From Octopus vulgaris (Eukaryota): DNA of 64,000 bases. Shown piece by piece: positions 5,292-37,481 of this stretch. The position numbers and the translations under genes were made by a program. Positions within the stretch are counted from its first letter, which is position 1. Each line of letters begins with the position of its first letter. The notes under the pieces were generated by a model. The model was not told the origin of the DNA and made no database searches. It saw only the letters and a list, made by a program, of their open reading frames with translations. The stretch lies in assembly GCA_951406725.2 (NCBI GenBank), contig OX597833.1:20150001-20214000 (forward strand), in the 5' to 3' direction.

Positions 5292-6020
5292 CACACACAA
5301 GCACACACTTGCACACAGATACACACATATATACCTATGTATATGTGTGCACATGTATACTCTACTGACATGCCAAAGACCAACATGGAGGCATACTGGG
5401 TCAACTTGACATTTGCATTTTATCCAAGCACCCGAAGGACCTAACACTCAGACATATACAAGAGTATATTCTCATAAATGAAATATCCCCAGTACTAAAT
5501 AGGAAATATACATAGGTAGTCATACCCCAATATCCACAGTTTATATATACACAGGTAGGCTTGTTAGCAGACTGTTATGTAGATGTAGATGTATGTGTGT
5601 GTGTAGATAAATGGATATGTAAGTAAACACATAGATAAACAGATAGATAGGTACATAGGTAATACAAACAGACAAGCACACACGCACAGATACATACACA
5701 AATGAAAACTGAAACACATGACCATATACACACACGCACACTTCACACACACACAAACACATACACACACACACACACAAGGACACATATGAAGACACAC
5801 ATCCATACATAACAGACGCATGTACAGTCACACAAACCCATACACATAGACACACATACACACACACACACATACAAACACAGACATGAATACACAAAAT
5901 ACATACAAATGTACACACATGAATACATATATATATGCATACACATACATGCATACACAAATATACATACATACATATGTGTATACATACACACACTGAC
6001 ACACACACATGTACACAAAC
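5237..6020. repeat. (TC)n tract followed by compound (CA)/(TA) low-complexity region
   Basis: Read directly from sequence. Confidence 0.9.
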
Positions 6021-7308
6021 AAACTAACAAAAAGAACGCAGCTCTGATAATAGACAGAGTCAATGACTATTGAAAAGGTTGCAAGAGGCAACAAAAATTT
6101 TAGAAAAAATAAATAAGTAAATGAGTTGAAAACAAACTGGTGAATGTGTTAACTAAGAAGGCACTAAAAGAGAATGACTCTCCCCATACATAATATAATA
6201 CACTTTTATTAAAACTGCTAAATCATCACAAAACTGTTACTCAGAAATTCCCATTCCCATACATTGGACAGTTGTCAGTTGTGATGAATACTCAATTAAA
6301 ATCATGATTTTAATTCATTATTCATCACAGCTTGTTTATAGCAGTGCTTGGAATTAAAGTGTGTAGAGTATAGTCATCTCAAAAAGCAGATTGAGTTTCA
6401 ACAGTGCAGGATCTCCTTGATTGTGTCGAGCAAGATGAAAATTATATTTAGATAAAGCAGTTTACCTCACATGGGATTAGTTGGAGGCTAAACAACAATA
6501 TCAACATCTCAATAATAATTATTTAATGACTAGGATAGTCTTTCAGAGTATCTCCACTAAAGTATTGTAAACACAAACCACTACATTGTATTTACTCATG
6601 TATAGATCACACTATTTCATGATTGATTTTAATTGAAAAATCATAGGTGCAACATACACTGATCAGAAACTAAATATGAAGGAGGAAAATTTTGTAGCAA
6701 GATTTAACCCTAAATATACACAAGTAAATATGGTAGATTCCCTTCTGTTTTGTCGCTGTTTTTATCATATATAACATTTTTATGTCTGTTTACTGGATAT
6801 ATATCTATAGAAACTAGTGCAGTATAGACTGGAAAAGAAGGATTTGGAAACTTAAGGTTCCTTTAAATGATCAGAGATTTAGGGACACCCCAAGTGAGAA
6901 ATTTAACAAGGAGAAAGAGGGACTAGAGATTTGTAACATAGAGGGCATCTGGGAGTTCCTGTGTGGTTGTCCTTGCATTCAGGCTACCCCCTGCATCCCT
7001 TTCCAGCTGAGCATTTCTAACCTTGTGGATTCATGGGTGCTGGTGCCACATAAGAAGCACCCATACTGGTGCCACATAAACACACCCTTGCTGGTGCTGC
7101 ATAAAATCACCCCATACACCCTGTAAAGCGATTGGTGTTAGGAAAGGCATCCAGTCATAGAAACCATACCAAAACAGACATGGATCCTGGCCAGCTCCTG
7201 TTAAACCATCAAACCCATACTAGCATGGAAAACGGATGTTAAATGATGATGATGGAAATGAAAAAGTGGAAAGGTGAGAGAAAAGAAAACTGGTAGGAGA
7301 AATGATTA

Positions 7309-24064: not shown

Positions 24065-24356
24065 AGAGTGTTTTCCCACATATTTCAATCCTGTGATTGC
24101 TTATTTCACCTATATGCCTCTATTAGGTAGAGGAATTATTAATACATCTGTCTTGGCATTAGGAAGCGCATCCAGCTGTAGAAACCAAGCCAAAACAAAC
24201 TAAGGAACCCAGAGTGTTTTCTCACATATTTCGATCCTATGATTGCTTAATTCACCTATATGCCTCTGTTAGGTAGAGGAATTATTAATACATCTGTCTT
24301 GACATTAGGAAGCGCATCCAGCTATAGAAATCAAGCCAAAACAAACTAAGGAACCC
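24065..24356. repeat. Tandem duplication, 2 x 146 bp
   Basis: 24065-24210 and 24211-24356 are near identical and span unique sequence plus a SINE start. Confidence 0.95.
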
Positions 24357-25562
24357 AGGGCGTCCCCTGGCATTGCTAGTTCCTGTCAAACCATCCAACT
24401 CATGCCATCACAGAAAACAGGCATTAAATGTTGTTGATAATGATGATGATGTCCTCATTTATCATAGGCATTTGTTGGAAAAAGAAAAACAGTGTTAAAC
24501 AAATCAGTGATAAATGAATAATAGAACATATGTAAAAAATAGATTTCGTTCCAAGACCCCATGTTGTCCTGAGTCTTATGGATGGTCGCTGGGGCCTGCT
24601 TTCACAGTCAAAGCAGAATTGTTGACTGATCGCCAATCCATGTTGGCACAGATGAATTCATGATAAGTCTAACATGGTTCACAATGAGTGTATTGCATTA
24701 TCCCAGATCAGTGAATGAATGAATAAATAATAAATCAGAATAGATGTACTGCTAGACTAAAATTGTTTGGACAACAAACTTCACTTTCTCTGTTTAGTAA
24801 AATCAACAAGTTTTGAACATTTTGTTCATTATCCAGTACAATATTTGTACACATTCAGAAAGGATCGGAGCTTTTGAATTTTTTATTATGCATGATCCTA
24901 ATGCTATTAACCTCTAGTCCATGGCTCAAAACTGTGGAACATAAATAAACATGATAAACGAGACATTAGGTATATGAACTGTTTAAAACAGTCTTTTACA
25001 AAAATATGAAAAGGTGAGCTGAGCTTAAATTTACTTTTGATTTGGTTATTTCCTGCCACTTGCTCTGCTTCTAACACATTAATCTTCCACCTCTAAATCA
25101 CTGCATGATGTATTTTCACATTTCACAGTCCAATTTTTCAAACAATGAATTCAATGATAAATCACTAAATTAAATTTACTGACTCCCTTCCATTTAGCCT
25201 TGCAAATCCAATAAACCAAGTAATTCTCTCTGATATTCTCTCTGATCGCTGCATCATCATCATCATCATCATCATCCTCATATCACCACCACCACCATCA
25301 TCATCATCAACAACTGAGCAAATGTTTCACTAGTATATAGTACTCTCACCATTATTTACATGTGTGTGTGTATCTATCCTGTTTATATTGCATACAGCCA
25401 GCTTTTGATACAAACAGCAATTTGATTCATTAAAGGTACCTTTATGTAGTTGTCAAAAAGTAGTTGGAACATCTTTGGTCTTACAGAACATCTTTGCCCA
25501 GTCAAAAGTAACCTGAGGTTAAACAATAAGTTGCAGTTTCTTGAAAGATTTTTTCAGCCAAC

Positions 25563-31195: not shown

Positions 31196-31793
31196 GGCAG
31201 TGAGCTGGCAGAATCGTTGGCATGCCGGGCGTAATGCTTAGCGGTATTTTGCCCGTCACTACGTTCTGAGTTCAAATTCCGCCAAGGTCGACTTTGCCTT
31301 TCATCCTTTCAGGGTTGATAAATTAAGTACCAGTTACGCACTGGGGTTGATATAATCGACTTAATCCATTTGTCAGTCTTTGTTTTTCCCCTCTGTGTTT
31401 AGCCCCTTGTGGGTAGTAAAGAAATAGGTATTTCATCTGCCACTATGTTCTGAGTTCAAATTCTGCCAAGGTCGACTTTGCCTTTCATCCTTTCGGGATC
31501 GATTAAATAAGTACCAGTTACGCACTGGGGTCGATGTAATTGACTTAATCCATTTGTCTGTCCTTCATTGTCCCCTCTGTGTTTAGCCCCTTGTGGGTAG
31601 TAAAGAAATAGGTATTTCATCTGCCGCTACGTTCTGAGTTCAAATTCTGCCACGGTCGACTTTGCCTTTCATCTTTTCGGGGTCAATTAAATAGGTACCA
31701 GTTATGCACCGGGGTCGATGTAATCGACTTAATCCATTTGTCTGTCCTTGTTTGTCCCCTCTATATTTAGCTCTTTGTGGGCAGTAAAGAAAT
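31196..31793 (+). mobile_element. Family B SINE with triplicated ~184-bp body, nested in a family D SINE
   Basis: 17-bp TSD AAGACT(G/A)GCTCGTTGAA at 31179-31195 and 31794-31810; three units each with GTCGACTTTGCCTTTCATC. Confidence 0.9.
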
Positions 31794-32254
31794 AAGACTA
31801 GCTCGTTGAAATACAGGTACTACTCATTTTTGCCAGCTGAGTGGACTGGAGCAACGTGAAATAAAATAAGGGACACAGCATACCACTGGATATTGAACTC
31901 ACAACCTTATGATCATGAGCTGAAAACCCTAACCACTAGCCATGGGCCTTCACGCAGCACACACATGTGGCCCAGTGGTTATGGCGTTCCACTTTCAGTT
32001 GCAAGATTCTGGTTTCAGTTCTCAGACCAGGCAGTACATTGTGTTCTTGAGCAAAACACCTCATATCAATAATTAAAACACACCCACACACATATACATT
32101 TATTTACATACAATATACATAAGAAGTTTGCATCCCAACAACATGGTATCAGGGGTCACTCCCTCTGCAAGGCACTTTGGGCAAGTGTCTTCTACTATAG
32201 CTTCAACCCAACCAAAGCCTTGTGAGTGGATTTGGTACAGAGAAACTGAAAAGC

Positions 32255-34340: not shown

Positions 34341-36270
34341 TGAAACTAGTAAAATATAAAAGATATTTTTATAGTTCAATGTTAGGTCAACTCTGATTGA
34401 CCAGACCTATGATCAAAAAGCATTTCAATCATAATCGTCCTGTCTTTGTAGAGGTATTTTATCTAATTTATCCATCTACATTTAAGATGAGAGAATGTAA
34501 TTTAAAGAAGATTAGCATTCAGACTACACTGTCAAATTTGGTGCTTATTTATTCACATTATTTGGAGTTAATCATGCATTATTTCATAGCTTCAAGATTT
34601 CGATGATGTGATTGTTTAGTTTTAGAATAACATTGTAGGGTGGGTGTGAGAAGCAGGATCTGACCAGTTTGAACATAAAACAGGTAGAATATCTGGGCTG
34701 AATATGGCTGGTTTAAATGCTAAAGGGTTAAGCTGCTCTTTCTAGACAGTTGAGTGACAGCATGGTAGGTCACTCAGTGGCTTGAAAAACCTATGTATGG
34801 AGGAATGCAAAGAATGTGAAGAATGCAAAGATATTTTTAATAATAATATTATTGTCATTAAACCAGTCTTTCACTGAACACTCAGAAAGCTCCTTCAAAG
34901 AATATACAATGTTATCGATTTGTTGTCATTGTTTTTAATGACCTCTTTTCTATGCTCACATGGGTTGGACAGAATTCATTGTGGCAGATTTTTCAGGGCC
35001 AGATACTGCTCCTGATGCCAGCCCTCACCAGTTTCCAAGTAGGGTAATATTTCCCCCTTGCCCATACAAGTTATTGTGAGAGGTTGGAAATGAAGGACAC
35101 TTCTTGCATGAGTAACACTTGTTTACAAATATTACATAAAGTCAAGGCAAGGAGACAGTAACATACACACACTACACACACTGGGTTTCTTCGTTTCCAT
35201 CTACCAAATCCACTCACAGGGCTACAGTAGAAGTCAATTGCCCAAGGTATCACACAGTGGGACTGAAACTGAAACTTTGTGGTTCGGAGGCAAACTTCTT
35301 ACCATACAGTTATGCCTATGCCTAACCAATATAAAAACATTCCTATCTTTAAAAAGGCACGCAACTTTTTACCATATAGTAAATTAGTATCACCTGTAAC
35401 TTACTGAATTCTTTGACTAGGTTACAACTGAAGTTATTCAATGGAGAATACACTTAGGTATCTCCTCCTGTCCCAAAGAAGGAAAAGAATATTTGTTTAG
35501 TATACAGTGCTAATATTATCATTGTGGTCAACTTTGACCAATGGTCAAAGATATTCCAGTTATGATTATGGTATAGCTTTTTACCTTTTTTTTAATCATT
35601 TTACTTGTTGCTGTCATTGGACTTCAGCCATACTAGGGAGCCATCTCAAAGTGTTTAGTTGAGCAAATCAACACAAGTACTTATTTTTAAGTTTGGTACT
35701 TACTCTATCAGTCTCTTTTGTCAAACCACAATGTTATGGGGACATACACAAACCAATGGTGATGTGTGGCTTAGTGGTTAGGATGTTGGACTCATAACTG
35801 TATGATTAAGGTTTTGATTCCTGGACTAGGCAATGTGTTGTATTCTTGAGTAAAACTCTTCATTTCACATTGTTCCCGTCCATTCAGCAGGCAAAATGAG
35901 TATTTCTGCGACAGACTGGTGTCCCATCCAGTGGGGAGTATATATGCTAAGGAATCCTGGAAACTGGCCCTATCAAGAAGTGGTGAGGTTCAAATATGAG
36001 CACACAAAGACAGACACACTTGCACTATACACAGTTTCCATCGACCAAATTCACTTGTAAGACATTGGTTGGTCCAGGGCTATAGTAGAAGATACTTGCC
36101 CAAGGTACCATGCAGTGGGACTGAACTGGAAACAACGTGGTTGCGAAATGAGCTTTTTAACTATACAACCATGCTTGTGCTCATATATATAAAACACTAT
36201 TTAATGTTACGGAGATGTACTTGCATAGCAAGTGACCTGATCTGAGATCATGTGCTCAAACGAAAACAAA

Positions 36271-36492
36271 TGCAGCATGGAAGGGGTTTATAAGCCATTT
36301 AAGAAACACACAAAATCCGTTAGGTTCACTTCAACATTTAAATTTAATTTGTCGAAATATTTTCGTCGTCAGTGAACAAGTTGCGGTCTCAAAGCAACGA
36401 AAATATTTTGACAAAATAAATTTAAATGTTGAAGCGAATCTAACGGATTTTGTGTGTTTCTTAAATGGCTTATAAACACCTTCCACGCTGCA
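36271..36492. repeat. 96-bp-arm inverted repeat (foldback) of a Penelope-like terminal region
   Basis: 36271-36366 vs reverse complement of 36397-36492: 90/96 identical by manual alignment, 30-nt spacer. Confidence 0.95.
36368..36412 (+). ncRNA. Minimal type I hammerhead motif with G3-C8 swapped core
   Basis: GUCA-GUGAACA-A-GUUGC-loop-GCAAC-GAAA-AUAU-UU-UGAC, followed by AAUAAA. Confidence 0.65.
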
Positions 36493-37481
36493 ATTATTTA
36501 ACGTAATCTTTCTTTACAATGGTAAGCATCATCATCATCATCAGATAACATCCGTTTTCCATGCTGGCATAGTTTGGACAGTTTGACAGGAGCTGGCAAG
36601 CCAGAAGACTGCACCAGGCTTCACTGTCTGTTTTGGCAGGGTTTTTACAGCTGGAGGCCCTTCCTAATGCCAACCACCTTACAGAGTGAAGTGAATGCTT
36701 TTCACATGACACCAGCACTGGTGAGGGGTGTGAATTGTGGGAGATTTAGTTGCTATTTCTAGCTGTTTGAAATACCAATAGAGGCTCCCACAATGAGTTA
36801 GTATAGTTTACAATGTTGAACTGTACTTCCCCACAATATCTATAATATTGTTGGGTAAACTGCTATTGTTAAAAATATCATCTTTTTGATTAGTAGCTTG
36901 GTACCCTAAACAACCTGACCAGTTCTGACTCTTCTCTATTTTCTAACAGCATTAATTTAATCCACACCATCACCACCACTAATGTAATATAAACTTGCGA
37001 AAGTATAGAATCTAAAACCATAAAGAATCCAAGCTATTCTCTTGCATCATATCACAATTTCAAGAAAAAACTATTATTATGCAACTCTCCATCTTTAATT
37101 AGATATTAAATATTCTCTAGTACAATGTAAATGGGGAATTATTCAGTGTGTTAAAAATATACAGTTCAGAAAGATCATTTTATATTTGACAAAAAGATAA
37201 AGATGTACGTCTCTGTAGCATGTAGCTTTGATCTTGTATTAAGCTAATGAGTCTCCCCGAGGACAGAACAGGAAGGAGATAACTCTATTCATGCTAACAA
37301 TCCACAAATATCTTACATGTTACAGTTATTGTTGCATAACTTTAGATTAACAATTAACTCTGATCAAGAAGACCTATGATCAAAGACTACAGCTGCATGT
37401 TTAAGAAGTTGACTTCTCAACAATGTGGTTTCAGGTTCTATCCCACTGCGTGGCATCTTGGGAAAGTTGTTTTCTATTATA

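Follow-up and report, generated by a model that had tools for sequence, protein, structure and literature searches.

In hammerhead ribozymes, the nucleotide at position 8 bears the general acid. The hammerheads described in metazoan Penelope-like elements (PLEs) are minimal type I motifs located in the pseudo-LTR (pLTR), and they cleave slowly, as dimers formed through a palindromic stem III (Cervera and de la Pena 2014, PMC4209133). According to the supplement of that paper, the core pair is C3–G8 in all of 56 published PLE hammerheads except two with U3–A8 and one with U3–G8, and the extra nucleotide that separates position 9 from 10.1 follows the consensus H, being G in 1 of the 56. Natural U3–A8 cores are thus already in print (PMC3088659; PMC4209133). 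In PAc, an element of the Poseidon clade from Anolis carolinensis that has a canonical core and an ORF starting in stem II, the hammerhead depends on the protein of the element; C3G or G8C alone abolishes activity, and combining the two changes partly rescues it (Frangieh et al. 2024, PMC11167929), in agreement with the claim, made in an initial annotation of the DNA studied here, that the double swap partly restores activity. Hammerhead mutants of PAc, the one PLE tested, did not block insertion in vitro (PMC11167929). Elsewhere, a G3–C8 variant was reported to have higher activity when position 17 was G rather than C (PMC3884650, data not shown there), and in a viroid hammerhead an extra G had a strongly detrimental effect (PMC3705267).

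Here we describe a hammerhead motif with a G3–C8 core in a 64,000-nucleotide stretch of Octopus vulgaris DNA (the window), together with the PLE family that carries it (family A) and a second PLE family (family B). In a literature search of incomplete coverage, which does not establish absence from print, we found no natural G3–C8 hammerhead and no octopus PLE hammerhead, and G3–C8 appeared as an engineered mutant alone.

Results

A hammerhead motif with a swapped 3–8 pair in an inverted pLTR insertion

Sequence inspection of the window located all parts of a hammerhead at 36368–36412 on the + strand, where the three-way junction of the minimal type I topology is built from stem I, stem II, and a stem III that is short and palindromic. 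The 5′ strand of stem I (GUCA, 36368–36371; 4 nt remaining of 7–8) is followed by the core G3-U4-G5-A6-A7-C8-A9 (GUGAACA, 36372–36378) with its swapped 3–8 pair, an extra nucleotide between A9 and G10.1 (36379; A in the window copy, G in the family), a 5-bp stem II closed by a 9-nt loop II (36380–36398; GUUGC at 36380–36384 and GCAAC at 36394–36398), G12-A13-A14 (36399–36401), the stem III palindrome AAUAUU (36402–36407), U17 (36408), and the 3′ strand of stem I (UGAC, 36409–36412). By homology, cleavage is predicted between 36408 and 36409. The initial annotation had placed the motif, stem I, the GUGAACA core, GAAA, AAUAUU, and U17 correctly and had omitted one nucleotide, A36379. Its "perfect" stem II does have 5 bp, but that form is private to the window copy; the family has GUCGC/GCGAC, and two CpG-type transitions keep the pair. 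The AAUAAA at 36415–36420 (+ strand), which it had also noted, was created by a T>A change private to the window copy (54 of 55 copies have T) and is therefore no family signal; a reading as a poly(A) signal was rejected on this ground. Relative to the family majority, the window copy is altered at the extra nucleotide, in each partner of a single stem II pair, and at the nucleotide responsible for AATAAA.

A descriptor permitting any Watson–Crick 3–8 pair matched the window at this site only and gave 0 matches in 100 dinucleotide-type shuffles of the window. An Rfam scan of the 64-kb window returned no hammerhead family at E ≤ 1, only microsatellite-driven miRNA matches, as expected if the motif is invisible to standard searches. 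Folded in isolation, the window motif gave a weak predicted structure (z −1.4), and fold predictions put G3 opposite U17, an inactive register.

The entire insertion spans 36207–36494 and is bounded by two 9-nt near-repeats resembling a target-site duplication, the likely left copy of which (TATTTAAYG, 36198–36206, + strand) matches the right copy at 8 of 9 positions. An inverted, 5′-truncated pLTR copy (36207–36368, − strand; 89.5% identical by blastn to the natural copy L175) ends at the long ("tail") 3′ end, and a direct copy (36368–36494, + strand) ends at the short 3′ end and includes what are likely the opening 10 codons of the RT/EN open reading frame, start codon included (36465–36494, + strand). 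The inverted arm lacks the 5′ half of the core because its start falls inside stem II, and the motif sits centrally in a 103-bp inverted repeat. The window copy is a 5′-truncated inverted/direct insertion of the end repeat of a Penelope-type element. Stem I is 7–8 bp in intact family A copies and 4 bp here, which upholds the earlier suggestion that the inversion truncated it, and a transcript over both arms is predicted to form one long hairpin in which GAAA and stems I and III are buried. Given the shortened stem I and this hairpin, we predict that the window copy has no ribozyme activity.

Elsewhere in the window, 5357–5527 holds an EN fragment of another Neptune-type PLE (47% to L165), followed by a microsatellite spacer and, at ~6065–6110, a decayed hammerhead-like stretch with U3–A8. 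Tandem repeats of 146 bp (24065–24358, 2 copies) and 184 bp (31257–31794, 2.9 copies) are also present, the latter built from a common SINE-like repeat.

The motif belongs to the pLTR of a recently active PLE

A whole-genome search with the family A pattern, in which positions 3 and 8 were left open, gave 5,243 matches, and the reversed control gave 0. These matches and the linkage of the motif to an RT/EN frame bear out the initial proposal of a Penelope-like family with a non-canonical core. One locus, L109, contains RT, EN, a microsatellite spacer, and the hammerhead; L151 has two direct pLTRs ~3.9 kb apart flanking RT; and at L165, an intact G3–C8 motif follows a stop-free frame of 839 aa. 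At L172, L175, and L181, the pLTR with its hammerhead continues into the beginning of the ORF, whose likely start codon lies 56 nt past the predicted cleavage site, and copies that extend upstream traverse ~1 kb rich in microsatellites before reaching the end of an ORF.

The L165 frame is a single ORF with a PLE-type RT and, at its C terminus, a GIY-YIG-type EN, between which lies a C-x3-C-x2-C linker that fits the CX2-5CxxC pattern; we take its GAIG and YVDD motifs to mark the PLE-type RT and VY..C..YIGET to mark the GIY-YIG-type EN. A Pfam search of the element ORF gave no match. Searched against database proteins, the L165 frame found 256 at E ≤ 1e-50, the best being an RT protein of Octopus vulgaris (57% identical). 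ORF identity is 98% among young copies and 87% and ~80% for older lineages, and family A is a recently active PLE. A young GIY-YIG family with 781-aa frames was considered as the partner of the motif and rejected, as its 30 loci have no common pLTR with it save for one unrelated insertion.

For comparison we took 60 loci, corresponding to the first 63 listed places of contig C1 with one omitted and each of two inverted pairs counted once; ~7 of the 60 share flanks and are not independent. Two 3′ ends ~58 nt apart account for 29 and 26 of the 60 copies, the other 5 being shorter, and an inverted partner lies immediately upstream in 34; this is the insertion pattern described for PLEs (PMC8557442; PMC11167929). 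Partial-tandem pLTRs, inverted 5′-truncated copies, and an optional tail are likewise present, as in PLE structure. In L213, L216, L242, L243, L246, L247, and L249, the inversion junction is identical and the flanks are common, indicating that one composite insertion was re-amplified as a unit. Short direct tandem units of the non-LTR retrozyme type were not found among the 100 places listed or in the window.

Leaders could be aligned for 36 copies; 31 of these start at −3 to +5 relative to a fixed 5′ point, and 3 reach at least 20 nt further upstream. A branch-point-like ACTAAC, a pyrimidine tract, and AG directly precede this point and were also seen in L061–L090; no splice donor for this site was identified. 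Either an intron acceptor lies at the fixed point, as it does in D. virilis Penelope, or transcription begins there. Short copies, the window copy among them, likely arise by reverse transcription that is initiated at one of two internal ORF sites and ends close to this point.

Like the Neptune/Nematis PLEs (Craig et al. 2021, PMC8557442), family A has a C-terminal GIY-YIG-type EN, a CX2-5CxxC linker, (TA)n-rich insertion sites, and tandem and inverted structures; it differs in the ~1 kb of microsatellite-rich sequence that separates the stop codon from the hammerhead. Family A is likely of the Neptune/Nematis type on the evidence of its linker, which is common to both, the homologues in our tree being unnamed so that the tree does not fix the clade.

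Positions 3 and 8 vary independently within family A

The family consensus has the fixed G3–C8 and longer stem I (7–8 bp) that the initial annotation anticipated. The literal CUGANGA core is replaced by GUGAACA in ~89% of the 5,243 matches, or ~4,655 G3–C8 copies (by subtraction, assuming ~25 doubles). C8 is combined with a nucleotide other than G at position 3 in 202 copies (by hand count, 58 A, 32 T, and 10 C among 100 matches listed), G3 with A or T at position 8 in 155 (72 T and 28 A among 100 matches listed), and 206 copies are mismatched G3–G8. A slightly looser pattern found 38 double variants, 18 non-complementary doubles being set aside in the follow-up.

We found no covariation of positions 3 and 8 inside family A, where complementary doubles occur at roughly the frequency expected if the two positions change independently: A3–U8 was expected 2.8 times and seen 4 times with the full pattern and 6 times with the loose one, U3–A8 was expected 0.6 times and seen once, and C3–G8 was expected 0.9 times and seen 0 times. 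The initial annotation had named independent variation of these positions as evidence against its reading. Such variation does, formally, occur inside family A, as is expected of dead copies; the comparison that informs on covariation is the one between families. Ten apparent C3–G8 "revertants" of family A were rejected because they belong to other families, nine being family-B-like and one of another kind.

The G3–G8 class is ~5-fold larger than the A8 and ~10-fold larger than the C3 transversion class. Among the 100 matches listed, three inverted pairs carry it in each arm, and L151 has it in both pLTRs, indicating that mismatched G3–G8 sources transposed and, therefore, that cleavage is not strictly required. 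Part of the G3–G8 excess may come from local duplication. A dense cluster of long family A copies lies on contig C16 (G000:C16) at ~1.5–7.1 Mb and may itself represent local duplication that inflates the G3–G8 count. The idea that G3–G8 is an older intermediate derived from C3–G8 was not supported: G8 copies are no more diverged (p = 0.35, 26 versus 52 copies), and C8 is already present on the deepest sampled branch, L109/L121 (midpoint root only).

Of the 60 sampled loci, 55 align over the motif. In these, G12 is conserved in 52, A13 in 50, A14 in 55, A15.1 in 54, U16.1 in 55, and U17 in 55; U4-A9 and G10.1 were preset by the search pattern in this set and were found also in matches by DNA similarity. 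The extra nucleotide between A9 and G10.1 is G in most family A copies, and a subfamily change in stem I produces a U–G wobble in 16 of 55. Loop II varies by subfamily, and inspection by eye for a loop I–loop II contact showed no covarying partner. G3–C8 is present in five of six labelled young-clade copies, the remaining one being A3–U8, and is kept in the older L161 and L109 (87% and ~80% ORF DNA identity), while loop II has changed. Contigs from public runs of four organisms contain the repeat, and loose-end consensus lines in three read G3–C8; as contigs, they are silent on expression and cleavage.

Hammerhead candidates with other 3–8 pairs also occur in this genome. A young PLE family with many 781-aa frames has a U3–A8 candidate with an ACAUGU palindrome (L038, L040, L041, L044, L049, and L055). 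An A3–U8 candidate with a stem II of just 2–3 bp lies twice beside a GIY-YIG fragment (L051:2050, + strand, and L051:2891, − strand); if it is real, then all four Watson–Crick 3–8 pairs are present in this genome. Two U3–A8 candidates of other families (L170:741, + strand, and L170:2142, − strand) lie beside or within a family A copy.

A second PLE family carries C3–G8 on the same scaffold

Family B is a second PLE family with 3,309 first-look candidates and EN fragments upstream, to which nine of ten C3–G8 matches belong. Its 3–8 pair is C3–G8 in 25 of 29 copies (the query being left out), and position 17 is C in 28 of 29, whereas family A has U17 in 55 of 55; a Watson–Crick 3–8 pair is therefore the rule in both families, as G–C in A and C–G in B. 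Family B also carries the extra G between A9 and G10.1. In a tree with 39 database homologues, from which the coverage filter excluded P0001, families A and B form a clade with 96/87 support.

The end repeats of the two families align over the hammerhead alone (59 nt, 73%). Core differences are confined to positions 3, 8, and 17, the changes at 3 and 8 being complementary, and G5, A6, G12, A13, and A14 are retained in both families. In an alignment of six copies of each family, 98% of cells pair, compared to 21–49% in slid controls, and 5 of 14 pairs are changed on both sides, including 3–8 and one pair each in stems II and III; the rows were picked by hand, and the alignment represents one contrast between two lineages rather than twelve, so that we attach no p-value. 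Because the sister family has C3–G8 on the same scaffold and the changes in stems II and III are compensatory, the G3–C8 swap, judged from these alignments, is a real compensatory change between families A and B. The flip from C3–G8 to G3–C8 most likely occurred on the line to family A, since family B and 53 of the 56 published PLE hammerheads are C3–G8.

Discussion

Our preferred reading, to which we assign a probability of roughly 0.6, is that family A carries a minimal type I hammerhead in a Neptune/Nematis-type pLTR, that its 3–8 pair has flipped from C–G to G–C, and that intact elements likely self-cleave slowly, as dimers, and probably with the aid of their own protein. The flip would keep the tertiary Watson–Crick pair by which the general acid, the 2′-OH of residue 8, is positioned; a pair of RNA copies would join via the palindromic stem III; U17 instead of C17 would avoid a G3–C17 misfold; and cleavage would trim element RNA out of longer transcripts while being dispensable for individual insertions. 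U17 in family A versus C17 in family B fits, we infer, with selection on catalysis, because G3–C17 pairing could trap the fold and the G3–C8 variant works better with G17 than with C17. Against strong activity stand the G3–U17 pairing in predicted folds, the extra G, and the mobilised G3–G8 sources. A bolder version, in which the natural G3–C8 core works fully because position 17 co-evolved from C to U and thereby abolished the G3–C17 misfold, would be consistent with the sequences, and we regard it as possible though doubtful.

The rival that survives best, which we nonetheless consider unlikely, is that the motif descends from a hammerhead and has no useful cleavage rate; the swap would then be a relic, and the sequence would survive only because the pLTR is duplicated at each insertion. 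The transposition of G3–G8 sources, the lack of covariation inside family A, the extra G with possible G3–U17 pairing, the dispensability of hammerhead cleavage in vitro for the Anolis PLE (PMC11167929), and the only partial rescue by engineered G3–C8 are all consistent with a relic. Decay of this kind is harder to reconcile with A/B core differences limited to positions 3, 8, and 17, with complementary 3–8 changes, or with a core and stems that stay constant over lineages 13–20% apart in ORF DNA while loop II has changed.

Quite improbable, in our judgment, is that the motif serves in binding, whether of protein or in a splicing or translation context. Its position would suit such a role, as it lies 16 nt past the ACTAAC, pyrimidine tract, and AG at which the majority of copies start, the likely start codon is 56 nt downstream of its predicted cleavage site, and the D. 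virilis Penelope intron ends at helix I (PMC4209133). Binding has no obvious need, however, for G5, A6, G12, A13, and A14 together with a complementary 3–8 pair, all of which are kept in both families, and the contig data contain no splice joint. A chance match within a palindromic MITE-like DNA repeat, as the 103-bp inverted repeat around the window copy and its weak isolated fold (z −1.4) might suggest, is scarcely credible and is refuted by the physical linkage to the RT/EN frame and by sister family B with its canonical core, with 0 descriptor matches in 100 shuffles and inversion break points that vary between copies also opposing it.

Read as a hammerhead of reversed 3–8 pair, the family A motif has the type I topology and pLTR location of the metazoan PLE hammerheads and, like them, a 5-bp stem II starting G10.1-C11.1, an additional nucleotide separating 9 from 10.1, a short stem III that is palindromic, and thousands of dispersed truncated copies with head-to-head pairs (PMC4209133); it differs by the G3–C8 core and by G as the extra nucleotide. 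The U3–A8 variants of S. mansoni Cercyon PLEs (PMC4209133) and of Perreault et al. (2011, PMC3088659) are likewise natural compensatory changes at the same pair, on the scale of a PLE family. U3–A8 arises, however, by two transitions that keep a pyrimidine at 3 and a purine at 8, whereas G3–C8 requires two transversions and reverses this arrangement, placing a pyrimidine at the general-acid position. PAc resembles family A in its hammerhead at the pLTR/ORF start, AT-rich targets, and two internal 3′ ends that give a "tail", and its engineered C3G/G8C mutant has the natural family A core (PMC11167929). In contrast to PAc, family A has a Neptune/Nematis linker, an ORF that likely starts 56 nt past the cleavage site, and a tail of ~58 nt.

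The family A hammerhead is neither a new mechanism nor a new class of element. It would be a natural, family-wide example of a core otherwise found, in the literature searched, only as a laboratory rescue mutant. The sister families, C3–G8/C17 and G3–C8/U17 on a common scaffold, constitute a natural experiment on core tolerance and bear on whether the hammerheads of PLEs are under selection for catalysis. Search descriptors for these motifs should permit any Watson–Crick 3–8 pair. If the bolder version and the further candidates hold, one animal genome would run PLE ribozymes with all four Watson–Crick 3–8 pairs, searches based on CUGANGA would have missed high-copy ribozyme families, and some PLE clades considered "hammerhead-less" may not be.
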